Shown: in pieces, positions 6,701-57,700 of the stretch
Position numbering within the stretch: position 1 is the first letter of the stretch
How the letters are laid out: every line of letters starts with the position of its first letter
Source of the DNA: Sphyrna mokarran
Taxonomy: Eukaryota
Length of the DNA stretch: 64,000 nucleotides
Reading direction: 5' to 3'
NCBI GenBank assembly: GCA_024679065.1
Contig: JAGIQG010000008.1
Location: 53,630,001-53,694,000 of the forward strand
Notes under the pieces: model-generated
Database searches by the model: none
Told to the model about the DNA's origin: nothing
Seen by the model: only the letters and a program-made list of their open reading frames with translations
Program-made: the position numbers and the translations under genes

Positions 6701-9700
6701 AGCTGTGACAGTCGTGGCTTCCACTTTGACATTCATTCACATCTGAAGTTGAGAAGAAAGGAAGAGGTCATTGAGGGATCTCCAGCTTTTTCAATCTTCA
6801 ACTTTCTACATGCCCAAATTTAGGCTTGAAGAACACGTCTCTTGGAGAACAATTGGAGTGCCCACGTCTGACATGCTCAGCCCTTTTGTGGTTCTACATT
6901 TTCTAGTCAGTAGCTGGTGACACAAATAAATAAACTTTAAACTCTTTATTGTTGGATTTTCATTCCTCCCTTGAAGAGAATTGTGTGTGGCAGTGGAATG
7001 ATAGTCAAGCTGATTAACAGTCAGACAGATTGTGATGTGAATGCTCCTTCCAAGGTCATAACTATTTCAATCAGTAGCTCCTGCTGCACTGTAGACTTCC
7101 ATCCCAATGTCCACCTCATTTAACTCAGTGTCAATCACTCCCATGTGTGGGAATCCAGTATTCCAAGGCACTGGGAAAAGGAAGTAAGAAAATTTTTATC
7201 TGAAAATGATTTTACACTGAAGTCATCTTATTCATGTTGTGTTTAAACAACTACATTCATTTTATACCCACAGTTATTGATGTGTGTGTGAACAATCCGT
7301 GTGGACCCAATGCCTCCTGTATCCAGCAAATTTTCTCCCTGCTGAGACCATGCTGGGTGCAGTGCAACACTGTGTAGAAACTGTCCAACCCCTCACCCAG
7401 TGAGTCAGTGTCTGCCTCTTAGCATTATCAGGAAGTATCAGTGAGATGTTTCATTGGGAGGGGAAGCATAATGGCTGCAATGTTCCAGCCATTCGTGCCG
7501 ATGGGATTCTATGGTCCCAGGGCTGTACAATGGAGATGTGCTGAGTCAGATTCTCTGTTCTCGCTTGCAGTGGTGGTGGGGCAAGAACAGCTGGGAAATT
7601 CTGGGCAACCTGGTTACTAAACATAATAAATCATTTCTTCAAAGATGAAGCAAATTTCAGAATGTACACCTTAATCCTACTCCTGATCTGGTTTGGAACT
7701 TGACAAAATCTCCAGTCCTGTATGATAGCAGTAAATTCAGTTCATTCCCCAATGGGTTCAATGATTCCCATCACACACCTGTACAGACAGATCCATTCCA
7801 GGTGTAGCCAGTCACACAGGAACATCTGAAGCTTCCATCTCAGTGATACTTCCTGTCAATGTTAAGAGACGGACACTGACTCACTGGATGAGGGGCTGGA
7901 CAGTATCTGCATAGTGTTGGACTGCACCCAGCATGGTCTCAGCAGGGAGAAAATTTGCTGGGTACAGGAGATACTGAGTCCAAAAGGATTGTTCACACAC
8001 ACATCAATAACTGTGTGTATAAAATGAATGTAATTGTTTACATAATAAGATCACTTCAATGTGGAATCATTTTCAGATAAAGAGAACAGCTTTAAGTGAG
8101 GTAGATGCAGTCAATTAAATGAAAAGGAAACTTTAACCTGAATGCCTTTCAGATACATGGAACATTTTCAACCCTTCAGAATGAGATGTGGAATACACAC
8201 AGTTATCTCCCTGCTATTTCTCTTTGATCAGAATTCAGTTAATGTTCCATTTTCTATCCAATGACACATTGAGCAGTGAAATCTTTTCAATCACCATACA
8301 CCTCTCAGCATGTTACAATTCAGAATGCTAAAATGACTGCTTCTGAAATCCCAGCGGGTCCCGCTGTATATGGTTGGATCATCCAGACCAGGAATTGTCA
8401 ACATGTGCCTGGAATAAACTCTGAGAACTTTCAGTTTCCTCAAAAAGAAACAAAAGAAATTAAAATGGAAAAATTTAACTCCAAATAGATTCAGTATCAG
8501 TTACCTGTACAATTCCTTCCATCTCCAGTATATCCAGCCTTACACACACATTGGAAAGAGCCGGGGCTGTTGAAACAGGAGGCTGAGCTGTGACAGTCGT
8601 GGCTTCCACTTTGACATTCATTCACATCTGAAGTTGCAAAGAAAGAAAGAGTTTATTAGAGAATCGCAGCTTTGTCAATATTAAATTATCTACCATTACA
8701 TCTAGATTTAGTCTTGAATAACATGAATCTTGGAGAACAATCAGTGCCCACTAATGGCAACCTTTGCCATTTGGTGGATTTACATTTCTTGTCAGTAGCT
8801 TGTGAAACTAATAAATAAAGTTTAAATTCTATTATTGTTCTAACTTCACTCTTCCTTGGTGAGAATTATGTGTGACAATGGAATGATTTTCAGGATGATT
8901 AACAGGTTCTGATGTGAATGCTCCCTCCAAGCTACTGCTGCAGTGAAGACTTCCATCCCATTGCCCACTCATTTACATTGTTTCAATATGTGGGAATCTG
9001 ATATATTGGGAAAAGCAGGAAATTTCCTCTTCCCCACACATTGCTGGGTACAAGTTGTAGAGACCTTCAATGCACTCCCCCTCCTCACCACATTGAGTCA
9101 CTTTTCATGTCTTAGCCCTATCAGGGGCAGCAGGATGTCTCATTGTGAGGGAGATCACAATCTGATGCTAAATTTATCAATCCTTTGTCCAATGGCAAAA
9201 CAAAACTACAGAACACATGTTTTGATCCCACCTCTGTCCTGATCTGATTTGGAACTTGACAGAATCTCCAGTCCTGTATGGAAGCAGTAAGTTCAGTTCA
9301 ATGATTCCCATCACACACCTGTACAGACAGATCCATTCCAGGTGTAGCCAGTCACACAGGAACATCTGAAACTTCCATTCACCTGGGTACAGGAGGCATT
9401 GGGTCCACACGGATTGTTCACACACATGTCAATAACTGCAGAGAGGAAAATGAAAGAGAAGTTTTAAGCACAATGCAGCTGAATAAGATTGCCTCAGTCC
9501 AGAAAAAGAATCATATACAGATGGCACAGCACCCAGTTGGGGTGATGCACTCAATTACAAGATGGCTACCTGGTTACCTCTTAGTAACACGATGCAGTTT
9601 TTAACCTTTCAGTGTGATATTTTTGAAACACTCAGTTCCCTCTGTACAATTTTATTACTCAGGGTTACTGCCTCAGGAAAGGTTCCATTTTCTGTCAAAA

Positions 9701-12700
9701 CCACAAAAAGTGATTTTGAGGCAGCTTTTGAACACCTCCCAACATGTTAAAATGAAGAATGTTATAATTCTACTTCCCCAAAGGCCTAGATGGTCCAGAC
9801 AGTTTGCAGATGCATCATCCACACCAGGAAGATGATGGTATTGATTCAATCGTAACCTGCTATCTTGCAATTTGATCACAATGATTATAAAAGAATAGGA
9901 AATGAAAATTCGTATCACTGGGAGGATTCAGTGTCAGTTACCTGTACAATTCCTTCCATCTCCAGTATATCCAGCCTTACACACACATTGGAAAGAGCCG
10001 GGGCTGTTGAAACAGGAGGCTGAGCTGTGACAGTCGTGGCTTCCGTTTTGACATTCATTCACATCTAAAGTTGAGAAAAAAGATTCATTGGATGATCCTC
10101 TGCTTTGTCAATCTTAAACTTTATACAAACCCAGATTGAGGCTTTAAACACATAACTGTAACAAACTGTGAATTGATCCTGTATTATGTTTCAATGGGTA
10201 AAGGTTCCATGTGCTATAACATTGAACCTCACAGCATAGGAAGCTCCCGGTTTCCCTCAGTGCTCTGCACTGTGTTATTGAGCTCAATTAGGGCAACAGT
10301 TGGGTGTTAGAAATAATCTCTGCTCTCCTGGGCTGGGAGATAAAAATCATTGATCATTCTACCTCTGATTGGAGCCCAGTTACTCCTATTGGAAAGTGTG
10401 TGTCTGTAAACACAGAGTGAGGACAGGATCAGACTCACTATGGTCACACAGGGTGGGGTTTTCCAGCCATGCCCTGCCTCAAAACCAGAAAACCCCACCT
10501 AAGGTCTATGGGCCCAGCCGAAGGCTGTGTCCTGCTCACCACCATTCGTGTGTTGTGCGTAATGGTAAGATTCTGCCTACACTGATTCCGATGACCTATG
10601 AGGAATTGCTGTTTGTTTGGTGGGGTCTGTATTACTACATCATGATGTGAAGATGTCGGCGTTGGACTGGGGTAAACACAGTAAGAAGTCTCACAACACC
10701 AGGTTAAAGCCCAACAGGTTTATTTGGTAGCATTAGCTATAAGCTTTCGAAGCGCTGCTCCTTCATCAGGTGAGTAGGAGGCGTGCTCACAAACAGGGCA
10801 TATAATGACACAAACTAAATTTACAAGACAATGGTTGGAATGTGGGTTTCTCCCCCGATGCTGATAATGGTTGGAAGACTCTCATTCCAACCTTTATCTT
10901 GTAAATTGAGTTTTTATATGCCCCATTCTTGAACATGACTCTCACTCACATGATGAAGAAGCAGCATTCTGAAAGCTTGTGACTTGTGCTACCAAATAAA
11001 CATGTTGGACTTTAACCTGGTGTTGTGAGACTTCTTACTTTAACTGTTACAGCAAGGACAGAGTCAATGTTATCAATGTGTGAATACTCTGCTGAAAGGG
11101 AGGGGGCATCAGTAACCCATACTGTATATCTTCTTGGAGCAAGAAGATACATTCATTCAATTCATTCAATTCACAGATTTCAATTCATTCAGCAGGTTCT
11201 GACTGCTCTTCAACAATTCAAACCTTTATTTCAAACTTGCATCCAAAAAAAAAAGCGAAGCAATTTTGAACATGAGATGTGAGGGATTCCTCCATTTTCC
11301 AGATATATATGTTTTTCTCATCTTCCTGAGCTGGATATAATTTAATAGATAGGCACTGATAGCTTCATTAAGTTATAATGCTTCATGTATGAAGATAGCC
11401 TCTTTCAACATAACGAGTATCCATTCTTGTTAAAGCTTTCATCATCAATAAAGCAAACTCCAGAACTCAAACCCCAATCCCATCCCTGTCCCAGTCTGTT
11501 AGGAACTTAACAAAATCTCCAGTCCTGTATAGAAGCAATAACTTCAGTTCATTCCCAATGGGTTCAATGATTCCCATCACACACCTGTACAGACTGATCC
11601 ATTCCAGGTATAGCCAGTCACACAGGAGCATCTGAAACTTCCATCCTGCTGGGTACAGGAGGCATTGGGTCCACATGGATTGTTCACACACATGTCAATA
11701 ACTGCAGATAGAAAACACATGAGTTGCTTCAGAGAAGTCACAATATTTTTGAATAGAATTCATTCAGAACTGTGGTGGCAAAATTATTGTTCTTAAGGAT
11801 CAGGAAGAGACACAGGCAATAACAGGAAGAAAGCAAACCTGGTACTTTTGAGATACATCAGACATCTCTCACTTTTTCAGTGGGAGATCTGTGGAACACT
11901 CACACTTCTCTCTGTACTGATGTAGAATGTTGAGTACTTGCATTCAAAATGTTGTCTTTCAGTTTACTGAGCCTAACCCAGCTCCCTGGAACAGTCATGT
12001 TATTATGCTTTGTTGGTATAAGGCTGTGTGGCCCTTTATCTTACCTCCCATAGTCCTGGAATACCTTTCTCTTCAGCTGATTACCCAATTCTGTTAGGAG
12101 GGCATCATACGATATCTTGATTATTGCTAAACTAATCTTAATTCAAGTTCACCACTACTTGTCCCGAAATTTCACCTCTTGAAGTTTATCACTGTCTTCC
12201 TCATGATTCAGTATATTATCACATTTCACACCATCTGTGAATTCTGGCATTATTCCTTGAGCACCGTAGTGCAAGTAATGGTCTCAGTACATGACTGACT
12301 CCTAGTAAACCCTTCTATATACCTTCCTGCAATGCAAGAAACAACTGTTCATCATTACTCTTTGTTTCCTGTCACTCAACTCTATTCCCCTCAAATACAT
12401 GTCCATACATCTCACAAAAACCTCCAAGAAAACCTTTGCAAAACTGTTTTCTGCTCAAATTGATGGATTAATTTTTTATTTTCATCCCAAACACCATTGA
12501 GGGTTTGCATACTTTCCAGCATGTTATCATTCAGAATGTGATCATTTCCCCCTTCCTATTGCCCAGCTAGTTCAGACAGTGTATGGATGAGTTGTCCAAA
12601 TTAGGCAAGTGATAGGGTTTTAAAGAAACATTCTCTCAAGGATTTGTAATTTCATCCTCATGGATTCAAAGAAATGGAAATTGGAAGTGTTTCCCAGGGA

Positions 12701-15700
12701 ATATTGAGTGTCAGTTGTCTGTACAATTCTTACTACCTGAAAAAAGTTAATAGTTTGGAATGTTAACAGTACTTACAGCTTTTGGTCTGAAAATGCAACA
12801 TTGAACCAATGTCCTCTTCTCCAGATGACATTTTCACAGCAACACTGACAGTGTACGGTGTTGACTCATTCAGATCTGTTAAAAAGAAATAACCAGATAC
12901 ATTGGTGACTTCGGTTCCAAGTGGAGACAGATTTAAGGTCAATGGTAAAAAACCCAAAGAGAAAATGAGCGCAACATTAGTTAGGATCTGGAATGTGCTG
13001 CCTGAGAATGTGATGTAGGTAGATTAATTATAGTGTTTAACACTTTCACCACTTTCACAGCTATAGACAGAACAATCCATGCAGCTGATAGTGGCTGGAG
13101 TTCTTCATGGAGACGGCACAGTTCCTACATTGCTCATTTATGGCAATATATTTTTCCCAATCAAATACCCTCACTGGTGTCTCAAGGTTTGTATGGTTCA
13201 AAATTTTCCCTGTTTTTATATGTTATGGATTGTGTATCTCTCTCTTATGCTGCCTCATTTTCCATTCTTCTATCCTGCAGTGAAATTTTGCATGATCCTT
13301 TAAAATCTCAAACTGGGAACTCCACATTGGGAATTCCATATGTGGTTCCCTGAACTGCAACAATCATTTTATGCTCAGGTCTAAAGTAAAGCTGTTCTAT
13401 TGGTCTCAGTTGGTGCTGCCAATAGACATGAGACTGAACTGATACGTACTCCATCACAGTGGGAGTATAAGTCACAGTCATCAACACTCGAACTCTTCCT
13501 TGTTAATGCTCTTGATTTTAATTATCTCTCAGCCGCAACACATACACACCTGATGAAAGGCCAAGACTGCCTTTATCGCCTCCCCCACCTCTACCTCCAT
13601 CCTACCACCTGATCATAGACTTGCCAGGACACACCCTGTATACTCTATATGCTCCCGCAGCTCATGTCAAAGTATCCTTTGGTTCCTCAGAGTTAGTTGC
13701 ACTGACTGTGTCTTTACCTGTGAGGATCACACTGGTATTCAGAGGGAAAACAATTAGATTCTTCATCGCTCTGTCACTACCAGAGGGGCCGTAGCTAATG
13801 GAATAGCACGAAACCAGGGCAGCATCGGAGGTGGGTGGATCCCAGCTGATCACAGCAGTAGATGATGTTATCTCAGAAACATTCACGTTGCTGAGGAATC
13901 TTGAAGCTGCCAATAAAACAAAGGCTCAGTTAGATTGAGGAAAACATTTCAGTTCTCCAATTGTGAGAGAAAGACAAGCTGACACTAAAATTAATTTTTG
14001 TGAATACATACATGGGAGAGTAGTGACATTAAGAGACTGGGAGTGGAGTGTCTCATTAAACGGAGAGACACACTCAATGGCCATGGAGTAAGTTGTGTTT
14101 GGTTCCAAACCTGAAAAAAAAGATCCGACATTAAATAAAAGTCCCAGAATTCTGTGAGCATAATTCATGTCAGTTATTTAGCAAATAATAAATACATTTC
14201 CACATTTACTTCTGAACCTCCCTTTCCTCGTTCAGGAGCTCAGACATGCCAACTACAACCATGTTTGGGGTTTGTCTGACTGCTCACATATCAACGCTGC
14301 CCTTGAGCGAGGTGCAGCAGAGCAGCCTGGGAACAAGCTGCCCACCTTTGTCAGAAATTAACAGGCCGACATTTGCTGCTTCCCTCAGGTTAACATGGTG
14401 TTTTCATCTTTCACAGAAACGTTAAAGACCTGTTATTGAGCAGTTAGAAAGTGAGTAAGGTGGGGCGGGGTGGGGAGAGACCAGAGGGAGAGGGGGTTGA
14501 TCTTTCGGGCGAGCATACACAGGTCTAATTCCAGCTTCATGGAGGCCATCAGTCAGCTTTTACTCCTCAATGAGATTGACATGTTTCCTAAAAAGCCGTG
14601 CTGTGTGTATGATCTGCCACACCCTCAGACAGAGTGGAAAACAGTCACTCCTTTGATTCTACACATGATGGGGATGCATTTCCCCGGGGTTATGTGTATC
14701 ACTCTAGTAATAAAATTGAAACAGTGGCACCTGGCATAAATATTGCCTGGGTTAGATTTAATCATAAACATTGTTTATTCTTTATTTCAGAGATTCTATG
14801 GTTCCCCTACCAACTCTGTATTGGAGTACATTGTTCTCTCTGATGTTTGCCTTGAGAGTGTGTCATATCCATTACTGCACACTTTGCCTAGGAAGCTAAG
14901 GTGACACAAACTTTAGATTAGGAGCAGGATCGATGGATAGTTTTTCCTGCCCTTAACTAGGAGCCAATGTGGCGTATTGCCGACCCCAGAAACTTTCCTG
15001 ACAGGAGTGAGTAATATCACTCTGGACCATTCATGGTATCAGGAAGTCCCAAAGTGCTTTAAAACCAATGATATATATTTCAAGTGGAGTCACTGTTGTA
15101 ATGTAGGCAATGCAGCAGCCCATTTGTGTACAGCAAGATCACACATGCAGCAATGAGATATTGACCAGACAATCTGTTTTACTGAGGCTGGTTGAGTTGC
15201 CAGTATTGGTCAAGGATTGGAGGTGAAGTTTCCTCGCTCTGCTTTTTAATCAGCCCGGCGAACCTTTTACATCCGACTGAGTCGTGGTCTCTTCTGCACC
15301 CTGACAGTACAGCAATCCCTCCGTTCTCTTCGCCAGAGTCAGCTTAGCCTTTGTGCTCTGGAATTGCATAACCCCTACAAGTTTCTATCTCAGGCAGTGG
15401 TAGCACTGAATTACACCTGACACACGAGGTCCTCATTGAGATCTAACTGGAAGCAGAGAATGAAGAATGAAACCGGAACAAAACTCCAGACATTCCTGTT
15501 GAATGCTTCGGATGCTGGGGTTTAAAACTGATGTTCCTGGAGCTGGGAGGCAGCAGCACCAACCACTGCACCACCGTGACAACATCACACTCCCAATGTT
15601 TAAAATTCAATCCAAAACAGATGTATGCATTCATAGAACCCCAACTGTATAGAAGGAGGTCATTTGGCCCATCGAGTGTGCACCAACCACAATACCATGC

Positions 15701-18700
15701 AGGTTCTATTCCCATAATCCCACGTATTTACCCCGCTTACTCACACAATTTAGCATGGCCAATCAACACATCTTCAGACTATAGGAGGAAACTGGACCAT
15801 CCAGAGGAAATCCACGCAGATATGGGGAGAATGTGAAAACTCCACATAGATAGTTACCCCAGGCTGGAATTGAACCCGGGTTTCTGGCTCTGTGAGACAC
15901 CAATGCTAACCACTGTGCTACTGTGCCATGAAATGAATGACAAACATTTCACCAAGTTCTCCCATTTGTGGAAGAATCCATTCAACTTTTGGAGGAATTA
16001 TTCGTTTTCATTGAAACCCAAAGCCTTGTCATGTAATCAACTCTGTGAGAAATCTTTGGGTCCAGATGACTTTAGGTAAGATCTGAAGTTTCTTTTGCAC
16101 TCTAGATGCAGATATTCTTTTGAACCAAAACGATACAAAGTGGCCTCAGACACTTTTTGAACCTACAGCAGTCTCATTCATGAGTTGCAGATGAATTTTA
16201 CTACTTGAGTCTTAGTCATAACTCAGTGGTAATTGGCAGTACCTCAGTCGGAAGGTTATATCACACTCCAGAGACTCGAGTGCAAAATCTCAGCTGACAC
16301 TGCAATACAGCATTGAGGGAGGGCTTCATTTTCAGATGAAACCATAAACCGAGACCCATCTCTGTCTGCAGGTGCATGTGAAATATTCTACAATAATATT
16401 TCTAAAAGGATTAGGGCACTTCTCTCTGGTGTACTGGCCAACATTCATCCCTCATCCAATATCACTGAAACACCGGACTGTAGATTCTGGCAATATGCAA
16501 TAAAAACAGAAGAGTTTTAGCTTTGCTCTCTATAGATGCTGCCAAACCTGCTGAGTTTTTCCAGCATATCACTAAAATAATTCGGCACTCCTCATAAGAA
16601 TTTGGTGTACACAATTGGTTGCTGAATTTCCAAGATTATAACAATGCATACACATCAAAATGGATCTTAGAGACCAGAAAGCAGCTTGAGATGTTCTAAG
16701 ATCATGAAAATAACAAGTGATTTCTTCACTTTGCTGTGAGTTTTACAGAATGATAAGGTTTGTCTACATAGATGGAAGGTGATTACCTTCATTTCTTACC
16801 TGTGATCAGTGTCTCTGTGTTGGCTGAGATAAGGCTGACAGTGTGGACAGTGTTAGGTGTCCCAGTACTGTGGTAGTGCAGACTGCAGTCCTGCAGAGCA
16901 CTCACATTCTCAAGAGGGGCCCACGAGATCACAGCACTGCTGCTGGAGATGGATGTTAAACTCAGAGTCCCTGCAATCATTTCTAAAGACCAAAACAAAA
17001 ACTCGTTAATCTCAAGAGTTCCATGGGATCACTGCAGGAATGGCAATATATTCTCACGGCTACAAAGGGAATTCTTATTTTCTGGATCAACCTTTAAACA
17101 TCCCGAGCAAAAGAAAGTATGTCTGAAATTTGTTTTCATTTATCCCTTTCGAGAGAGCCCTTTGAAATACCGAGATTAGCTTTTCTGTTGTTGCTGTTTC
17201 TCATCATCTGCAGTTTAACGTCAGATTTTCCCAGTTAAATAGAATGTTTGAGACTAATGACCACAGATCCAAGAGCAGGAACTTTCATCAGAATGAGAAT
17301 TCCATGGTCCAAATATCTCAGGAATCATCATGCTTCTTCACAACAATTACATTAAAGGATGAGAGAGGTTTCTGGATATGACTTCCATTCCCAATGAGAA
17401 TAAAGGTCAGATATCCAGGATAGAAATAAAAAAGAGTATTGAAAGATAGAAATGGGATGAATTCCCTCTGAAATTATTCAATAACAGTTACCTGTACAAT
17501 TCCTTCCATCTCCAGTATATCCAGCCTTACACACACATTGGAAAGAGCCGGGGCTGTTGAAACAGGAGGCTGAGCTGTGACAGTCGTGGCTTCCACTTTG
17601 ACATTCATTCACATCTGATGTTGAGAAGAAAAGAAAAGCTCATTAGAGGAACCCCAGCTTTCTGCATTTTAAATTTTCTCTGGTTACACATCCAGATTTA
17701 GAGTTGGTCCATACATCCCTTATAAAATTGTTCAGTCAGTGATGTACAGAGTTGATCTTTGTGTGGTGGATACTTGTACAACTGCAACATCATCAATGAG
17801 ATTATTCATTCAGGGGTGGATAGGGAGACAATTGACAAGATTTTTCTGCATGTTCAACACATTAAGGATGAAATTGAGGAAACTGAAGCAAGTAACTTGT
17901 GAAAATCACAGCGATAGAATGAAAAATGCATGTAAAACAAGGTTCCTGGCCTTAGCAATAAGTTTGCAATCCAGTGACTATGGGTGGGACTTTTGCAGTC
18001 GGTGGTGCAGTGATTGTTTCGCACAGAGAGAAACAAGCTCAGTTAGTTTGTTGGCTACAGCGAAAATTCCCTCATCTTTCTGCAGCAGAGATAAACAGCT
18101 GGGACAAACAGGGAGCTCTTCCAGCCTGACACATTGCTGGTGAAGTCATGGCCACCATTGACCTCAGGAACTGAATAAACATCCTTTGAGGTCAGTCTTC
18201 AGCTCAATGGCAGGTTCTGATTTGAAACATTTTCAAGAGCTATGAAACTTTTAAAATATGTTATGTATTTTAAATACTTTTAATATTTTATAATAGGTTT
18301 TAAACATTTATAAACAATCCAAATACTGAGGCAGAAGGAGAGGGAGATAGGGAGAAAGATTAAGAGAGGGAAGGAGGCAAATGCTTCGAGTGGTAGATAT
18401 CAGAAAGTTGTGTGGTAATTCTCTCTCTAGTCCCTGGCTTTGCGAATGTAGAATTCCGAGGCACTACAAAGAAAGTGTGGCCCTGGCCCAAATGTTGCTG
18501 AAAAATTGGCAAATTAAAAGAAAGACACTAAAGGCTGCTGGGAAATGTACCTAAGTTACAGAGGTTTGACAAAGAATCACATAGGCAGTTCTCTTACAGC
18601 ATACAAGTAGATCTCTTGACTTCAAAAGGTAATGATTATCAATTTGAGGTGCCAATGATCACAGATGAACAAATGGTAGTAAAGAATTACCCATCACACA

Positions 18701-21700
18701 GAAGTAGGTGATAATGAGTATGAAGGATGGGCAACTGTGTTAGTCTGTCAAGGAACAGAGAAACGCAAACAGACATGCAGTCCCAAGGAAGATACAAATA
18801 TTGCCACAGACTTAGTCAAATTTGTGATAATCAAAAGCAGGAACATTATGGAAGGGAATCTCAAACTGTCAGCTTGAAGACACTTTTCGATCCGCATTCA
18901 TTCTTGGACAGCACCATCAAGAGGTGATATCTCCACAACTTCACTGGAAGTCATTAGATAAATACTGTTTGTTTAAACCTATGCTGAGGAATTTCCCATA
19001 GCAGCAAAGGAAGGTGGAAATATTTGTGTTTTAAACAGAGTACAGTAGTGTGAAGCATTGGAATTTTATATTTTGTTTAATGAAGAAGTGATTTGATTCA
19101 AGAATAATAGCATGTCCATCAATCATCTAGAGTGATGTTCTCAGTCAACAGGTTCAATGATACCTGTTACACACCTGTACAGACAGATCCATTCCAGATG
19201 TAGCCAGTCACACAGGAACATCTGAAGCTTCCATTCACCTGGGTACAGGAGGCATTGGGTCCACACGGATTGTTCACACACATGTCAATAACTGCAGACG
19301 GAAAATGAATGAAGATGGGTTAGCCAACATCAAAGTGCAGTTGAATATTGTCGCTAAAACTGTAATTGGGACATATGCTTTCCCCAGGATAGCTTAGCAA
19401 TTTCCTTTCCTCCTCAGTGGCATTTGCTAATCACTGTAAAACCTATCATTTTAATAGAGATCCTGGGCTGAGTAGCAGTAAAAATCACAGAATGTCCACT
19501 TCTCAGAGTGAAAGCTTACACTTGTAGATTGAGTGAGAGCAGCATTGGGACTGTGTCATGATGTCCCTGCTGTCACTTGGTGTCCCATGAAGAATGGATT
19601 AGATACTGGGCTGGAATTATAATGAAATAAAGGCAATTTCAGGAAGAACAGCATGAAACAACTGAATGAGGATAGGACATATGATATATTTTAAACCACT
19701 GTTTTCCTAACATATTGTCTGAGCAATTTACTTTCTCAAATTTGAACTTGTATAAAATTTTGAGATTTATATGAACTAATGTAGTTCAGCTTCCCCACAT
19801 ACTGAGTCAACGAAATGTTCCTTTTTGTATATGGAATCCATGTTGAGAAGGATACAGATACTTAAGGGATGAGGCAAACCTCCAGACTCGCCAAAATGTA
19901 ACAATTTTCACTAAAGAGATTCTCTCAGTCATTCAGTTGGGTCTGGCAGGGAGCAGCTTTGTTACATGGGGGCACGAGTTGTCTGGATGTGATTCCCATT
20001 CCAAGATCGAATAAGCTCCCAGATATTGGGATTATAAATTGGAAAGAGCATTCTTGGAATTAAAATGGACGGGATAATTTCCAATTTGCTCAGTTGATGA
20101 AATGATTAGTGTGAGGAGCAGAATGGAAGCAGTAGTTCTGCTTCGATTCCCATTCTGGCCGAGGTTGATTTGTGACCTGCTGCCTCACTCTGTCCCTGGA
20201 AGGCAATGGCAAACCACCACTGACTAAAAACCTACCAAGCAAACCCCTCATGTACAAAGCAGACAATGGACCAGGGGCCTGCCTTCAGGAAGAGAATGCA
20301 TGACAAGACCTGAAAATAAAGATGGAAGTAGGATGATTTTCCCCTGGGAAGATTCAAAGTTCCGTGAAGTTTGACAACACCAATTTTAAATCAAACCGAT
20401 TTATTTGATAGTAAATCCACGAGCTAAGGCCGAAAGCTCGTGGATTTACTATCAAATAAATCGGTTGGATTTAAAATTGGTGTTGTCAAACTTTACGGAG
20501 TTTACCCCAGTCCAACGCCGGCATCTCTACATCAAGATTCAAAGTTATCAGACTCAATAATTTGGCTGTGTTTTTTCTCTGCAAATGCGTCAGACCTGTT
20601 GAGATTTTTCAGCATTTTCTCTGTTGGTTTCAGATTCCAGCATCCACAGTAGTTTGCTTTTATTAAGATTCAGTGTCAGTTACCTGTACAATTTCTTACA
20701 TCTCCAATAAAGGTCAAATATCCGGGATAGAAAGCAAAAAAGAATATTGAAAGATAGAAATAGGATGAATTCCCACTAAGATGATTCAATATCAGTTACC
20801 TGTACAATTCCTTCCATCTCCAGCATACCCAGTCTTACACACACATTGGAAAGAGCCGGGGCTGTTGAAACAGGAGGCGGAGCTGTGACAGTCGTGGCTT
20901 CCACTTTGACATTCATTCACATCTGAAGTTGAGAAGAAAGGACGAGTTCATTGAAGGATGCCCAGCTTTGTCTATCTCAATAAGTATTTGTCAATAATTT
21001 ACACTTATCTCATCTCCAACATTTAAATCTTTTGCCCATGTTTGAATTTGGTGTCAGGTAGTTTGTGCCGGATAGTGAACAGCAGGCAGGCTAATTCCCA
21101 GTATTCTGGAGCCATTAAAGTTTGTGGAACACATTCCCACATGTGTGAGATCCTCACAATCTCCTGTAACAAAGTTATCAGCTTGGATTTTCCACATTTC
21201 TTCATTTACGAAGAAATTCTCTTTTTATTGTGTACTACTTCAAACAAAAAAGGGGTTGGACTCAGAATTGTCAACATTGACAATAAATAATTTGTAGTTC
21301 CTCAGCAAATGAAGCTGTGTGTGATTGAATGCAGCAAGAGGCGACAATATCCAGACTTGGTCTCATCAGTTGCAGGAAGCGTTTATGTCACATGTTCACA
21401 AGAAAGATCTAACTACCTTCTCACGATAGAGAATAACATAATCACTAACAACCCACTGTGTGAATATATTGTGCACTTACCTGTTAGATCTTTGGGAATT
21501 TATTTTAATCTATGACTGTGAACCATTTGTCAGAGTTTATGATTTGTGTTTCTTTGTTCAAGCAAAATCCCAGAATTCTGCTCATCTCAATCTCTCCTTG
21601 ATCTTTTCTCATTTAAGTAGTAGCTTTTCAGCTTCTCCAATCACTCCATATTAGTGAAATCTCTCATCCCTGGTATCATCTTAGAAAACCACCACACTGC

Positions 21701-42700: not shown

Positions 42701-45700
42701 GGTCCACATGGATTGTTCACACACATGTCAACAATTGCAGCTATAGTGAAAATATAGGCAGTTTATACAAACTAAAGAAGAGCTGAATAATCGCACAAAA
42801 ATTGGCTGTCATTTTATTGGCATGGCCACCCCAAAATCAGGGTTGGAGAATCTCAAAGAACAGCATTCACCGTTGGCGTGGAATATGATCTTGCGGCTTG
42901 GGTGGCTGTACTAGTAAAACCAGGACAAATATGATCATAACAAAGTCTACAATTTTTTACAGAGTTCCTGAGCTATGGAGAATCAAAACAAGAGAATGTT
43001 CCCTCCATTCTGTGAAGGGACATTTGAAATTCTACATTGGGGGAGTGTACGACAGAGGAAGTGTCATTATGCCCCCATGAGAAATCTGAATAAAGTTGAG
43101 CACCTTAGGGGAAGACACTGAATTTGCTCAGTTAGGATTAACTACTGGGCCTATTTTTAACCATCGGTCTTTTTTAACCAGTGCCTCGTTAGATTTTGCA
43201 ATTTACTTTCCAATTTTCTTTTGGTATAAAAGTTTGTCCTGTGGATGAACTTATTGCTGAGCTTTCCAACTTAATAATTTGGTCTAAAGTGTTTACTTTG
43301 CATCCGGAATCAGTTTTGAGGCAATCACAAATACTCTGGGCAACAGACAAATATCTTCATTCCCAAACATTTTAGAATGATCACTAAAGGGATCTTCCCA
43401 GTGACTCCATTAGCTCAGACAGTCGATAAGTATGTCATATAGACAAGGATGTTTCTAGATGTGATTCCTATTCCAGCCTTGAACAGACATCCAGATATTG
43501 TGGGTATAAATTAAAAAGAGATGGACACTGGATGATTTGCCACTGGGAGGATTCAGTATCACTTACCTGTACAATTCCTTCCATCTCCAGTATATCCAGC
43601 CTTACACATACATTGGAAAGAGCCGGGACTGTTGAAACAGGAGGCTGAGCTGTGACAGTCGTGGCTTCCACTTTGACATTCATTCACATCTGAAGTTGAG
43701 AAGAAAGGAAGAGTTCATTGGAGGATCCCGAGCTTTGTCGGTATTAAACTCTCTACACACACCCAGATTTAGACTTGAATCACATGAATCTTCTCCAGAT
43801 ATCCTGAATGAGCAAGGTGTAAAATCACAGAGTGCCCACTTCTGACAGGCTGTGCCATTTTGTGGATTGACACATTCAAAATCAGATTATTCTCAGATCT
43901 TCATTCCTTCCTTGGAGAGAATTATGTGTGGCAGTAGAATGACTTTTTTCAGGCTGATTAACAGTCTGACGGGTTGTGATGTGAATGCTCCCTCCAAGGT
44001 CATAACTAGCTAAATCAGCAGTGCTGCTGTAGTGAAGACTTCCAGGCCAGTGTCCACCTCAGTGTCCAGACTCAAACATTCCCATATGTGGGAATCCAGG
44101 AATCGTAGACACTTGGAACAGAAGGAAAACATGCTCCTTTCCGGACCATGTATGATGCACATGAACAATTTCTAAGGACAGTTAGCATGCCACCCAATAA
44201 GTCACTGTCCATGTCTTAGATCCAATAGGAATTCTCAGTGGAAAGTCCCATTGTGAGGGAAATCACAGTCTATGGTAAACTTATCAGTTCACTCTCCAAT
44301 GGCAAAGCAAACTACAGAACACATGTTTTAATTCCACCTCTGTCCGGGTCTGGTTTGAAATTTGACAGAATCTCCAGTCCTGTATGGAAGCAGTAAGTTC
44401 AGTTCATTCCCCAATGGGTTCAATGATTCCCATCACACACCTGTACAGACAGATCCATTCCAGGTGTAGCCAGTCACACAGGAACATCTGAAGCTTCCAT
44501 TCACCTGGGTACAGGAGGCATTGGGTCCACACGGATTGTTCACACACATGTCAATAACTGTGGATATAAAATGAATATGATTGCTTAAACACATCATGAA
44601 TAAGATCACTTCAATGAGGAATTGTTTTCAGATAAAAAGAAAACAGTGAGGGAGATGGAGTCAATTAAATGAAAAGGGAGCTTTAACTGAATGCCTTTCA
44701 GATAAAAAGGACAGTTTTGAAATCTTCAGAGTGAGGTGTGGATCACGCGCAGTTATTTCTCTGCCATTTTTCTCTGCTCAGGATTCAATTAATATTCCAT
44801 TTTCTTTCCAATGACTTATTGAGACAGAGAAACCTTTTCAATCTCTGTACACTTCCCAACATGTTACAATTCAGAATGTTAAAATATCTCCCTTCTGAAA
44901 TCCCAGCTGGACCAGGCACTGGATCTGGACCAGGAATTGTAAGAACAGGCCTGGGATAAACTCCAAGGCCTTGCAATTTCCTCAATTGGATACTAAAGAA
45001 ATTAAATAAATGGATCCTGGATCAGTTACCTGTACAGTTACGTCCATCGCCAGTATATCCAGCCTTACACACACATTGGAAAGAGCCGGGGCTGTTGAAA
45101 CAGGAGGCTGAGCTGTGACAGTCGTGGCTTCCGCTTTGACATTCATTCACATCTGAATTTCAGAAGAAAGGAAGAATTCATTGGAAGATCCCCAGCTTTG
45201 TCAGTATTAAACTTTGTACACATCCAGATTTAAGCTTGAACCATATGACTCTTGGAGAACAATCAGAGTCCCACTTCTAATAGGCACTGCCATTTTGTGG
45301 GTTTACACTTGCTAGCCAGCAGCGTGTGACACAAATAAATAAACCTTAAATTCTATTATTGTTGATTCTTCACTCCTCCCTTGGAGAGAATTGTGTGTGG
45401 CAGTGGAATAATTTTCAGGTTGACTAATAGTCAGATAGGTTGTGATGTGATGCTCCCTCCAAGATCATAACTGTTGAAATCTGCAGCTACTGCTCCAGTG
45501 AAGACTTCCATCTCAGTGTCCACCTCACTTGTGCTGTTTCAATGTGTGGGAAGCCAATACACTGGGAAAAGCAGGAAATTTCCCCATCTCCCGACATTGC
45601 TGGGTACAATTTGTAGAGACCTTCCACGCACCCACACCCCCCCCTCACCACATTGAGTCACTTACATGTCTTAGCACCGTCAGTGGCAGCAGGATGTCTC

Positions 45701-51700: not shown

Positions 51701-54700
51701 GCATTGGGTCCACACGGATTGTTCATACACATGTCAATAATTGCAGCTATTGTGATAATATAGACGGTTTATACAAACCAAAGAATAGCTGAATAATCGC
51801 ACAAAAAATGGCCTTCATTTTACCAACACGGACACCCTAAAATCGGGGTCGGTCAATCTTAAAGAACAGCATTCACCGTTGGCCTCGGGTGGCTGTGACA
51901 GTAAAACCAGCACAAATATGGTCACTACAAAGCCTCCAATTTCTCACAGAGTTCCTGAGATAGGGAGATTGAAAACAAGAGAATGTTCCCTCCATTCTGT
52001 GAAGGGGCATTTGAAAATCTAGGCGAGGACACTGAATTTGCTCAATGAGGATTAACTATTGGACTTATTTTTAACCAGTTCTTTTTTTAACCAGTGCCTT
52101 GTTAGATTTTGCAATTTACTTTCCAATTTTCTTTTGGTATAAAAGTTTGTCCTGTGAATGAGCTTATTGCTGAGCTTTCCAATTTACTAATTCAGTTTAA
52201 AGTGTTTCATTTGTATCTGGAATCAATTTTGAGGCAATCATAAATATTCTGGACAACAGACAAAAATCCTCATTCCCAAACATTTTAGAATGATCACTAA
52301 AGGGATCTTCCCAGTGAGTCCGTTAGCTCAGACAGTTGACAAGTATGTCATATAGACAAGGATGTTTCTGGATGTGATTCCTATTCCAGCCCTGAACAGG
52401 CATCCTGATATTGTGGGTATAAATTAAAAAGAGATGGACACTGGATGATTTGCCACTGGGAGGATTCAGTGTCAGTTACCTGTACAATTCCTTCCATCTC
52501 CAGTATATCCAGCCTTACACACACATTGGAAAGAGCCGGGACTGTTGAAACAGGAGGCTGAGCTGTGACAGTCGTGGCTTCCATTTTGACATTCATTCAC
52601 ATCTGAAGTTGAGAAGAAAGGAAGAGTTCGTTGGAGGATCCCGAGCTTGGTATTAAACTCTCTACACATACCAGATTTAGTCTTGAATCACATGAATCTA
52701 GGACAGCAATCTTCTCCAGATATCTTGAATGAGCAAGGTGTAAAATCACAGAGTGCCCATTTCTGACAGGCTATGCCATTTTGTGGATTGACACATTCAA
52801 AATCAGATTATGCTCAGATCTTCATTCCTCCCTTTGTGAGAATTATGTGTGGCAGTGGATTGATTTTTTTTTCAGGCTGATTAACCGTCTTATAGGTTGT
52901 GATGTGAATGCTTCCTCCAAGGTCATAACTACTTAAATCAGCAGCAATGCTGTAGTGAAGACTTCCATCTCAGTGTCTATCTCAATGTCCAGACTTAAAC
53001 ATTCCCATGCGTGGGAATCCAGGAATACTAGGCATTGGGAACAGAAGGAAAGCAAATATCCCTCTTTCTGGACCATGCAAGATGCACATGAACAATTTAT
53101 AAAGACAGTTAGAATTCCACCCAATAAGTCACTCTCCGTATCTTAGATCTAATAGGAACTCTCAGTGGAAATTCTCATTGTGAGGGAAATCACAGTCTGA
53201 CGTAAAACTTTTCAATTCTTTCTCCAATGGCAAAGCAAACTACAGAACATATGTTTTAATCCCACCCCTGTCCGGGTCTGGTTTGAAACTTGACAGAATT
53301 GCCAGTCCTGTATGGAAGCAGTAAGTTCAGTTCATTCCCCAATGGGTTCAATGATTCCCATCACACACCTGTACAGACAGATCCATTCCAGGTGTAGCCA
53401 GTCACACAGGAGCATCTGAAACTTCCATCCTGCTGGGTACAGGAGGCATTGGGTCCACACGGATTGTTAGCACACACGTCAATAACTGTGAATATAAAAT
53501 GAATGAGATTGTTTAAACACATCATGAATTAAGATCACTTCAATGAGGAACTGTTTTCAGATAAACAGAAAACAGTGAAGGAGATGGAGTCAATTAAATG
53601 AAAAGGAAACTTTAACTGAATGCCTTTCAGATAAAAAGGACAGTTTTGAAATCTTCAGAATGACGTGTGGATCACGCACAGTTATCTCTCTGCCATTTCT
53701 CTCTGCTCAAGATTCAGTTAATATTCCATTTTCTTTCCAATGACATATTGAGACAAAGAAACCTTTTCAATCTCTGTACACTTCCCAAGGCATTACAGTT
53801 CAGAATGTTAAAATGTCTCCCTTCTGAAATCCCAGCTAGACCAGGCACTGTATCCGGACCAGGAATTGTAAGAACAGGCCTGGGATAAATTCCAAGACCT
53901 TGCAATTTCCTCAATTAGATACAAAAAAAATTAAAAGGAAATATTTAACCCCCAAATGGATTCAGTATCAGTTACCTGTACAATTCCTTCCATCTCCAGT
54001 ATATCCAGCCTTACACACACATTGGAAAGAGCCGGGGTTGTTGAAACAGGAGGCTGAGCTGTGACAGTCGTGGCTTCCGCTTTGACATTCATTCACATCT
54101 GAATTTCAGAAAAAAGGAAGAATTCATTGGAGGATCCCCAGCTTTGTCAGTATTAAACTTTGTACACATCCAGATTTAAGCTTGAACCATATGACTCTTG
54201 GAGAGCAATCAAAGTACCACTTCTAAAAGGCACCGCCATTTTGTGAGTTTACACTTTCTAGCCAGCAGCGTGTGACACAAATAAATAAACTTTAAATTCT
54301 ATTATTGTTGATTCTTCACTCCTCCCTTGGAGAGAATTGTGTGTGGCAGTGGAATAATTTTCAGGCTGATTAATAGTCAGATAGGTTGTGATGTGATGCT
54401 CCCTCCAAGATCATAACTGTTGAAATCTGCAGCTGCTGCTCCAGTGAAGACTTCATCTCAGTGTCCACCTCATTTGTGCTGTTTCAATGTGTGGGAATCC
54501 AATACACTGGGAAAAGCAGGAAATTTCCCCATCTCCAGACATTGCTGGGTACAATTTGTAGAGACCTTCCATGCAGCCCCCCCCCCCCCCCCCCCCCACC
54601 ACCACATTGAGTCACTTACATGTCTTAGCCCCGTCAGTGGCAGTGGGATGTCTCATTGTGAGGGAAATCACAGTCTGATGGTAAACTTCTCAATCCTTTC

Positions 54701-57700
54701 TCCAATGGCAAAGCAAACTATAGAACACATGTTTTGACCCCACCCCCGTCTCTGTGTGATTTAGAATGTGACAGAATCTCCAGTCCTGTATGGAAGTAGT
54801 AAGTTCAGTTCATTTCCCAATGGGTTCAATGATTCCCATCACACACCTGTACAGACAGATCCATTCCAGGTATAGCCAGTCACACAGGAGCATCTGAAGC
54901 TTCCATTCACCTGGGTACAGGAGGCATTGGGTCCACACGGATTGCTCATACACATGTCAATAACTGCAGGTAGAAAATCAGAGAGATGTTGTAAGCATCA
55001 TACAGTTGAATAAGATTGCCTCAGTACACAAGGGTAATCACATAAAAATGGAGCAGCGTCCTGGTGGGGCGGTGCACTTAATTGCAAGATGGCAACATTA
55101 TCCTGGTTACCTGTTAGATATATGAAACAGTTTCAAACCATCAGAGGGAGCAATCTGGAACACTCAGTTCTCTTCATGCAATTTTATTACTCAGGGTTAT
55201 TGCTTCAATAAAGGTTCCATTTTCAATCCAGCAAATCATTTGCAGAGTGACACATTTCAGGTTTGGAACATCTCTAATCATGTTACCACTCAGAATGTTA
55301 TATTTCCCCTTTTCCAAAAGCCCAGATGATCCGGGCAGATGCATCATCCAGACCAGGAAAGTGATGATATTGATTCAAGTGTAATTTGACATCTTGCAAT
55401 TTGCTTACGATGATTATAAATGAATAAGAAATGGGAATATTTTTCACTGGGATGATTCAGTATCAGTTACCTCTACAATTCCTTCCATCTCCAGTATATC
55501 CAGCCTTACACACACATTGGAAAGAGCCGGGGCTGTTGAAACAGGAGGCTGAGCTGTGACAGTCGTGGCTTCCACTTTGACATTCATTCACATCTGAAGT
55601 TGAGAAAAAAAGAGTTCATTGGAGGATCCCCAGCTTTGTCAACATTAAACTTGTACACACTCAGGTTTAAGCTTGAACCACATGACTCTTGGAGGACAAT
55701 CAGAGTGCCCACTTCTGGCAGGCTCCGCCATTTTGTGGTCTTGCACTTTCTAGTCAGAAGCTTAGAACATAGAACATAGAACATAGAACAGTACAGCTCA
55801 GTACAGGCCCTTCTGCCCTCAATGTTATACCGATCTTTGTCCGAAACCAAAATCAAGCTATCCCACTCCCTATTGTTCTGGTGTGCTTCATGTGCCTATC
55901 CAATAACCATTTGAAAGTTCCTAAAGTGTCCAACTCCACTATCACAGCAGACAGTCCATTCCACACCCCAACCACTCTCTGAGTAAAGAATCTACCTCAG
56001 ACATCCCTCCTATATCTCCCACCATGAATTTTATAGTTATGCCCTCTAGTAACAGCTACATCCACCCAAGGAAGTAGTCCCTGAAGGTCCATTCTATCTA
56101 TCCCCCGCATCATCATATAAACCTCCATGAAGTCGCCTCTCAACCTCCTCCATTCCAAAGAGAAAAACCCTAGCTCTCTCAAGTTTTCTTCATAAGATCT
56201 ACCCTCCAAACCATGCAGCATCTTAGTATCTGAAGTTGACAAGAAAGGAAGAAAGTTCATTGATCGATCTGCATCATTTTCAGTGTCAAACACTCGACAA
56301 ATCCAGATTTAGGCTTTGACCACATCACCATCCCTGCGTGGTTTGGTTTGGAACTTGACAAAATCTCCAGTCCTTATGGAAGTAGTAACTTCAGTTCATT
56401 TCCCAATGGGTTCAATGATTCCCATACACACAGCTGTACTGACAGATCCATTCCAGGTGTAGCCAGTCACACAGGAGCATCTGAAGCTTCCATCCTGCTG
56501 GGTACAGGAGGCATTGGATCCACACGGATTGTTCACACACATGTCAATAACCGTGGATATAAAATGAATGTGATTGTTTAAACACAAATGAATCAAAACT
56601 CTTCAATGAGGAACTGTTTTCAGATAAACAGAAAACAGCTTTAATTGAAGGAGATGCAGTCAATTAAATGAAAAGGAAACTTTAACCTGAAGTTCTTTCA
56701 GATTCTTGGGACAGTTTTCAACCCTTCAGAATGAGATGTGGAGCACACACAGTTATCTCCCTGCTATTTCTCTCTGCGTAAGATTCAGTTAATGTTCCAT
56801 TTTCGATCCAATGACATACTGAGGCAGTAAAACCTTTTCAATCACTGTACACCTCCTAATATGTTACAATTCAGAATGTTAAAATGACTGCCTCTGAAGT
56901 ATCAGCTGGTCCAGGCACTGTGGGGTTGGATCATCCAAACCAGGAATTGTGAGAACATGCCTGGGATAATCTCCAAGATCTTGCAATTTCCTCAATTAGA
57001 TACAAAAGAAATTAAAAGGAAATATTTAACCCCCAAATGGATTCCGTATCAGTTACCTGTACAATTCCTTCCATCTCCAGTATATCCAGCCTTACACACA
57101 CATTGGAAAGAGCCGGGGCTGTTGAAACAGGAGGCTGAGCTGTGACAGTCGTGGCTTCCACTTTGACATTCATTCACATCTGAAGTTAAGAAGAAAGGAA
57201 GAGTTTATTAAGGATCTCCAGTTTTGTCAATCTTTCTACTGTTACACCCCAGATTTAACCTCGAGACTTGTAAAAGAACCAGATTCAAGATTGTTTCTCC
57301 AACCCGAGAGCGCCCAAGATTCACTGGGTATGTTTCCAAGAATATGAGAAAAAATCATAACAGAAAGAAAGTAAACATGTGGTTGATTTGTTCCAATGGC
57401 AACTGTTTATCCAGGTCTAGAAAAACTGGCAGTAATATCCCAGCAAAGATCAATAAAGATTTCTCAATAATTCTGTTCAAGAAGTGTGGAACCTTCTCAG
57501 TCTCTTGTGGAACTTAGCTGGTCTGAATTGTTCTATTTATTTCTTCACCAACAGATTCCCTTTTAAGAAAGAATACAAGTTAACCAAAGCAAATGTCAAT
57601 GTTTGATCATTCCCCAGGAATGTGAATGTGAAAATAAATAATTAACAATTCTTCAGTTACCTGTACAATTCCTCCCATCTCCAGTATATCCAGCCTTACA

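Follow-up and report, generated by a model that had tools for sequence, protein, structure and literature searches.

In the N exons of the Xenopus ceacam paired receptors, gene conversion has been described as exact to the exon (PMC5112662), and the mammalian KRTAP1 genes are reported to have coding sequences that evolve in concert between radiating flanks, with an abrupt border that was ascribed to short-tract conversion together with selection, reverse transcription of mRNA being rejected (10.1101/282418). Mosaic concerted evolution, with some exons concerted and others divergent, is described for BMP8A/B, DDX19A/B and TUBG1/2 (PMC2720389); the primate LW/MW opsins show the opposite pattern, introns converted and exons protected (PMC3924837); and the exon arrays of Dscam (130-160 bp) are reported to show no conversion (PMC3236188). 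Here we study a 64,000-nucleotide (nt) stretch of the Sphyrna mokarran genome (contig JAGIQG010000008.1, positions 53,630,001 to 53,694,000; hereafter the window), in which two families of EGF-coding exons, called A and B, stay close to uniform while the introns around them have diverged. We conclude that this uniformity likely comes from ectopic DNA-to-DNA gene conversion that starts in the exons and is filtered by selection. Conversion is well supported because four-fold divergence is low, exon and intron divergence are uncoupled, a B-exon haplotype (VN) is scattered over the array, and certain residues are species-wide.

The window belongs to a 2.77-Gb genome and was analysed together with 200 kb below and 140 kb above it; coordinates beyond the window are on the window's scale, and all features located below lie on the minus strand. 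Mapping homologous shark and ray proteins onto this region outlines one minus-strand gene of ~330 kb with eight larger units, each made of EGF exons, a block that we take to be CUB-like (Pfam returned no CUB match) and one more EGF and FN3 exons; after the eight units come an FN3, a uroplakin 3A-related region, a membrane segment and a tail. The juxtamembrane part of a homologue matches uroplakin 3A (8jj5_C, E=2.9e-5). Thirteen repeated exon families make up 194 exons and about 8,400 codons, every exon being phase 1-1. The A exon is 123 nt long, codes for an EGF module of the calcium-binding type and has AG/GT ends; there are 80 in the locus and 32 in the window (spanning 665-60778, 0-6 differences from the consensus). 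The B exon is 117 nt long and also codes for an EGF module; 25 intact-length copies lie in the window (spanning 992-61964) and 45 were analysed in the locus. One A-like exon with 39 differences (126653) and two damaged B copies (7779 and -15279) were left out. As low-copy controls we used other exons of the same gene, among them the FN3 exons J (16800-16982), K (14012-14110), L (13718-13906) and M (12777-12875), with eight copies each. All 80 A exons keep six Cys codons, an open frame, AG and GT, and 9 of the 45 B exons have a non-canonical splice site or a stop; because of this we judge the gene to be under selection. Purifying selection acts on the Cys codons and splice sites of the A exons.

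Set beside the systems above, the array works in the manner of KRTAP1 and ceacam conversion, showing three of the five features of that kind, and it is a large and unusually clean example of a known process. It stands apart from both in being intragenic, in its exon size and copy number, in its built-in control and in its non-neutral variant spectrum. The ceacam exons sit in pairs of separate genes in opposite orientation, whereas here 80 + 45 exons in direct orientation lie within one gene and show a copy-number gradient. KRTAP1 shares with the shark exons a concerted evolution restricted to coding sequence, but concerns four single-exon genes that are described as partly homogenised, against internal exons and a much tighter homogenisation here. 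For BMP8A/B, DDX19A/B and TUBG1/2 tracts are reported to span exons and introns with raised guanine-cytosine (GC) content, whereas here most tracts stop near the exon edges and third-position GC (GC3) is unraised. Tandem paralogous exons of similar size are what the opsins and Dscam have in common with this locus. Argiope MaSp2 is described as having intragenic exon-intron arrays, alternating unit types and concerted evolution in which whole units, introns included, are homogenised; its introns average 97.6% identity within the gene, whereas here the nearest paralogous intron is a median 11.8% different (PMC9779670). Tenascin-X, which that paper lists among its references, may be another system of this whole-unit kind. 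A literature search, which left subscription papers mostly outside, found no report of exon-restricted conversion in sharks.

The initial annotation started from four A exons, at 8505-8627, 17492-17614, 32697-32819 and 57057-57179, that it read as identical within diverged introns. They are identical letter for letter over 123 nt, they equal the family consensus, and they flank the FN3 exons (12777-16982), one below and three above. As an anomaly, the identity does not survive: the 80 A exons depart from a single consensus at 0-8 positions (mean 2.575, variance/mean 1.12), 7 of 80 are identical to it against 6.1 expected from a Poisson distribution, and four identical copies are no more than family scatter, the probability of at least four among the window's 32 being 0.18. 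Identity at CpGs was right for the four copies, but in the family as a whole the two CpGs vary in 3-12 of 80 copies per site. That the flanks of the four exons differ is mostly true: 10 of the 12 side comparisons are near the random baseline of 0.28, the donor side of 8505/57057 being the only cleanly aligned flank (17% mismatch, 1% gaps), with the acceptor side of 17492/32697 aligning moderately (23%, 7% gaps). The counts given for matching positions of the ~50-kb repeat were exact, with 3/123 differences for A, 7/117 for B and 14/99 for FN3 exon M (the copy at 12777 against the second at 63254-63352), in surroundings whose alignments are 79-86% identical with many gaps. The signal that goes beyond chance is the low synonymous divergence of the family as a whole, not the four identical copies.

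A uniform family might also be produced by an assembly or polishing step that collapsed exon copies to their consensus, which we consider highly improbable. Short reads cannot be placed uniquely in a 123-nt exon: in the short-read data X1, exon bins reach summed depths of 1,000-3,200 against about 12-21 for unique contigs, the exons pile up in all four runs, and X1, possibly the source sample itself, does not allow a whole consensus exon to be phased. Collapse would inflate the class of identical copies, and at 7 against 6.1 expected this class is not inflated, which speaks against it. Moreover, 73 of the 80 A exons keep private differences, and such variants survive in short-read contigs, contrary to the polishing artefact that the initial annotation had wished to see checked: one X1 contig (10016-10200) runs with 0 differences from exon 9942, private variants included, into that exon's unique intron, and X1 contigs match unique introns with 0 differences. 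The independent assemblies of other species show the same uniformity within species, and a 97-nt consensus contig of organism C stands at depth 94, compared with about 2.

Exon synonymous divergence (dS) falls well below intron divergence rather than equalling it. The ratio of four-fold to flank divergence is 0.38 for A, 0.50 for B and 0.87 for exons of the gene with 4-8 copies, taken over pairs with both flanks alignable (78 of 3,160 A pairs, 43 of 990 B pairs and 43 of 195 low-copy pairs, the last from 7 of 11 low-copy families; pairs are non-independent), and the slope of four-fold on flank distance is -0.07, -0.02 and +0.43, respectively. When disjoint closest collinear pairs are used, four-fold sites differ at 15/300 in A (20 pairs) against 0.122 in the flanks (P=1.9e-5) and at 23/255 in B against 0.137 (P=0.015). 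Diversity at 0-, 2- and 4-fold sites is 0.031, 0.056 and 0.064 in A, and 0.067, 0.120 and 0.107 in B. Over 1,200 of the 3,160 A pairs, exon distance stays at 0.035-0.041 in all flank bins, whether the flanks differ by 5% or are saturated (Spearman -0.05 and 0.00); the majority of flank pairs have reached the random baseline of 0.28. The nearest paralogous intron, which 116 of the 117 A/B introns have, is under 5% different in 6 of 116. Concerted evolution of whole units by unequal crossing over expects homogenised introns, and the median of 11.8% is at odds with this; birth-and-death with purifying selection, of the Dscam type, expects congruent exon and intron histories, which we do not find.

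The uncoupling bears directly on a reading without conversion, in which the array expanded in this lineage and the A and B exons are held by unusually strong nucleotide-level constraint from splicing signals, RNA structure or codon choice. We hold it very unlikely, although the star-like A variants with their Poisson scatter fit independent mutation from one ancestor, and 6 of 15 four-fold A sites are invariant in 80 copies. With a slow clock, exon distance should grow in proportion to that of the introns, but the seven closest collinear pairs, whose flanks differ by about 7%, already differ at 35/861 A exon bases, equal to the 4% of unrelated pairs; therefore the exons mutate at a near-normal rate and then reach a plateau, which a slow clock would not do. 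The low-copy exons of the gene show little synonymous constraint, and no RNA fold beats its shuffles (z -0.05 to +1.53 in 4/4 sequences). In the fold predicted for 44441-44557 and intron bases +1 to +6 (z -0.05), the B donor pairs with the 3' part of the exon in a 7-8 bp stem. Nor can nucleotide-level selection alone, one of the explanations first offered, shift a three-site haplotype among copies, and constraint is already contradicted for B by the scatter of such a haplotype.

This haplotype occupies B exon positions 54, 55 and 57, where 22 of 45 copies carry VN (two derivatives included), 20 carry QD and 3 are intermediates. On an upstream-intron tree of 18 rows the VN/QD label requires 7-8 changes, at least 6 of them forced by supported branches, and does no better than when shuffled; the two downstream trees (12 and 10 rows) call for 2-3 changes, again no improvement on shuffling. 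The exons 44441-44557 (VN) and 53369-53485 (QD) are supported sisters in both flank trees with opposite haplotypes, and therefore the haplotype difference sits within otherwise shared flanks. At a distance of +2 nt a site is still completely linked to the haplotype (0/22 vs 10/20), whereas 8-11 nt away no linkage is detectable. Two B exons with a common dead acceptor, 39374-39490 (GG acceptor, VN, upstream intron 6.3% from that of its partner) and 56434-56550 (acceptor and donor dead, QD), also differ in haplotype, and therefore recipients need not be spliced. Longer transfers are seen as well: the A-intron-A cassette at 57039-57791, whose downstream exon is the consensus copy at 57057, is 98.0% identical over 753 bp to -75353 to -74601 (L013), 132 kb away, with a private exon variant in common and identity that ends at the outer exon edges, and therefore DNA that includes the intron moved between exon homologies. 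A second exon-bounded tract joins 95143-96157 and 98647-99662.

Exchange of a different kind could leave some of these traces: crossovers inside exons, by unequal exchange or by deletion and duplication, would shuffle introns and homogenise exons as a by-product, pure non-crossover conversion playing only a small part. The relatedness of upstream and downstream flanks is only weakly correlated (Spearman 0.16), exon-bounded cassettes could be duplicative insertions, and the A/B order is irregular, all of which such crossovers would explain. We nevertheless regard them as an unlikely source of the uniformity: the opposite haplotypes of 44441 and 53369 would need two exchanges in one exon, and recent whole-intron duplicates are rare, at the 6 of 116 given above, though all A exons are within 8 differences of the consensus.

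Some further details concern the structure of single A and B exons. At 29514, 42618 and 51624 the B acceptor AG is mutated to AA; because an AG six bases upstream keeps the frame, these exons may still be spliced through it. A B exon at 7195-8081 is split by a local inverted duplication, whose 254-bp arm at 7195-7448 matches 7836-8081 in inverted orientation at 87%, and an isolated 26-nt A exon 3' end with its donor lies at 20684-20709, 90 nt downstream of A exon 20800.

The borders of the uniform segments differ between the families. Among alignable pairs, divergence on the A donor side is at the intron level of 0.18 by +7 to +10, and the acceptor side shows a ramp of about 30 nt that overlies the polypyrimidine tract. 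B exons show a step at the acceptor, and past the donor divergence stays within 0.00-0.09 as far as +40, climbing to 0.19 only beyond +80, so that the exon and its uniform intron tail together measure about 200 nt; the 80 bases at 44361-44440 exemplify this graded rise from 0.00-0.03 to 0.19. The tail may be co-converted or may be a constrained splicing element, and G-runs in it could presumably act as splicing enhancers.

These borders, and the form of the transferred cassette, bear on the template. Conversion from RNA or cDNA, which the initial annotation had entertained, would use transcripts as donors, would end tracts at splice junctions and would let a dominant template reset the copies. 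The step at the A donor edge, the absence of a distance decay in A and of a rise in GC are in keeping with it, as is a simulation with 30% of events from a fixed donor that fits the A spectrum (below). We give this route a slim chance at best. The transferred cassette contains a 481-nt intron, ~80 nt of intron similarity extend past B, and neither precise intron loss nor fused exons were found in any of the 193 annotated introns (0/193, the shortest being 103 nt). No retrocopy outside the locus appeared among the scored matches (the best 40 of 81 for A, the best 40 of 48 for B and 8/8 for FN3 exon L, all of them within the locus), the genome holding at least 81, 48 and 8 candidates against local counts of 80, 47 and 8. 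A spliced-RNA template is unlikely because no intron is lost and no outside copy was scored, these tests being compatible with a pre-mRNA template, and a DNA template is favoured over RNA by the 98% cassette 132 kb apart, by the 0/193 introns lost and by the lack of a retrocopy seen.

Comparison with other species, made at the protein level for A positions 5, 29 and 32 in up to nine other species (1-14 repeats per predicted protein), shows copies that are more alike within than between species. All copies here have K at position 29 (80/80), against E in Stegostoma (7/7) and G in Leucoraja (8/8) and Pristis (13/14); at position 32 the residue is Y here (79/80) but H in Scyliorhinus canicula (9/9) and Cetorhinus (5/5), with Carcharodon mixed (3 Y, 3 H). 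For B position 57 there is a hint from DNA. Among the matches listed (40 of 430), with depths taken from contigs on 8300-10200 and summed over contigs, the QD base holds 394/1,121 in organism A, 138.6/138.6 in organism B, 38.6/38.6 in organism C and 259/271 in organism E; some intron pieces of organisms B and C are as close as about 4% to this genome. The VN haplotype changes Q-Q-D-G-S to Q-V-N-G-S, an N-glycosylation sequon, and N-G-S is present in 25 of 43 open B copies here against 0/28 B repeats in five other species. This suggests, from sequence comparison, that VN spread in this lineage or was lost in others, and we infer selection as the driver of a spread. A recent origin of VN is countered by the exons 42618 and 51624, whose flanks are 13.5% diverged and which share VN and a further variant. 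Separately, the commonest A variant, at position 120 (13/80), changes Thr to Ser and keeps an N-C-T/S sequon at the exon end.

Several observations weigh against simple exon-initiated conversion. Raised GC and a decay of similarity with distance are often expected of DNA conversion. GC3 at degenerate sites is not raised (A 0.42, B 0.49, low-copy exons 0.38-0.65), and A similarity does not decay over 240 kb (Mantel p=0.154), whereas that of B does (p=0.002). The uncoupling is partial in B (Spearman 0.12 and 0.29), and the low-copy exons F (0.048 vs 0.190) and G (0.033 vs 0.153-0.172), with two pairs each, are also low. Species-wise protein clustering is found in the 7-copy C exon too and fits lineage-specific expansion as well. 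At 117-123 nt the exons are shorter than the minimal efficient segment of ~200 bp reported for yeast and rodents, shorter conversions occurring at a low rate (PMC3924818). Finally, unbiased conversion at equilibrium is rejected for A, as the variant spectrum makes clear: A variants are many but rare, with a pi/thetaW ratio of 0.32 at degenerate sites and the commonest in 13 of 80 copies, and the simulated ratio is 0.76-1.30 with the commonest variant at 38-48. For B the ratio is intermediate (0.51).

An extra assumption, consensus bias or a recent sweep, is needed because the unbiased equilibrium fails for A. In simulations, which are toy models run with 2-40 seeds, two scenarios fit the A spectrum: slow conversion after a sweep that dates back about 0.035 substitutions per site, and a steady state in which a fixed donor supplies about 30% of events. 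Other models were set aside: the unbiased equilibrium with protein-level selection added did not reproduce the spectrum either, a fixed donor with whole-exon tracts gave over-dispersed distances (variance/mean 3.1 vs 1.12), and a pure burst without conversion left too many variants (53 vs 37). GC-biased conversion had no support, weak-to-strong variants being no commoner than strong-to-weak ones in A and GC3 not being raised. It is possible, though we would sooner doubt it, that conversion is directional, a favoured donor or a drive-like bias resetting 80 exons of less than 200 bp to a master sequence over 240 kb, with the sequon haplotype in mid-sweep across 45 exons. The boldest form of such directional conversion, with pre-mRNA as donor, would claim only a very small share of that already tentative possibility.

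The mechanism that we favour for the A and B exons would run as follows. Conversion would start in the exons since these are the only long near-perfect homology left between units, selection keeping them alike enough to pair, and the diverged, indel-rich introns would halt most tracts at the exon edge and hence escape. Most tracts would be tens of bases long, with a few bridging from one exon to the next, and more copies would mean more donors. The process would be off neutral equilibrium, sweeps of favoured variants or a bias towards the majority sequence resetting the A exons. Of what the initial annotation proposed, the exon-focused short-tract conversion therefore stands, carried by low four-fold divergence, exon/intron uncoupling, an incongruent haplotype, species-wide residues and a copy-number gradient.

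The minimal homology for ectopic conversion, and whether selection or repair confines it to coding sequence, are questions mostly addressed with two to four paralogues. This locus offers exons in 80, 45 and 4-8 copies within one gene, datable introns as an internal clock and many shark and ray orthologues, so that one could measure how conversion depends on donor number, how long its tracts are, whether donors are biased and how selection acts on it. Two practical points follow for such loci: dS between repeated exons should not be used as a clock, and in short-read data the exons collapse but the introns stay unique. A bias, if true, would give a new glycosylation site a route to spread through a whole protein, and directional conversion, if true, would amount to molecular drive that retunes a giant surface protein one module at a time.

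The relatives of the gene are uncharacterised elasmobranch EGF/FN3 membrane proteins, among them LOC144696780 (Cetorhinus), LOC125460920 (Stegostoma), LOC121293089 (Carcharodon) and a 'fibrillin-2-like isoform X42' (Pristis), in which the fibrillin-like and Notch-like names are automatic annotation. They share EGF modules (80-95% identical to the A module), FN3 blocks and the C-terminal region; none of these predicted proteins, many of them fragments, has an array nearly as long as the one here. The isoform number X42 of the Pristis orthologue (P0167) may point to a large set of predicted splice variants. No named family or paper for the gene was found in the literature search, again with subscription papers mostly outside it; a search of protein representatives returned mainly generic EGF arrays, and an Atlas query with a homologue returned generic FN3 clusters at 0.88-0.90.

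The larger repeat units vary in content. Those at 14177-64000 in the window and at 64682-80326 (L021-L022) are without exons that are present in complete units; the in-window unit has only FN3 exons J-M, C-I being lost, and with every exon in phase 1-1 the frame survives such losses. Three adjoining FN3 K-L blocks (L017-L020 and window 13678-14184) are 96-97% identical including their short intron, and the other five are less alike, which suggests, judging by the aligned copies, recent duplication or longer conversion there. A depth peak at 8748-8875, considered as a second homogenised block, was read instead as a fragment of a common repeat because its local paralogues are merely 76-82% alike and short pieces of it match other contigs. 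Self-inverted intronic stretches at 26518-27612 (82%), 10680-11039 (78%) and 20361-20499 (92%) are probably opposed copies of interspersed repeats.

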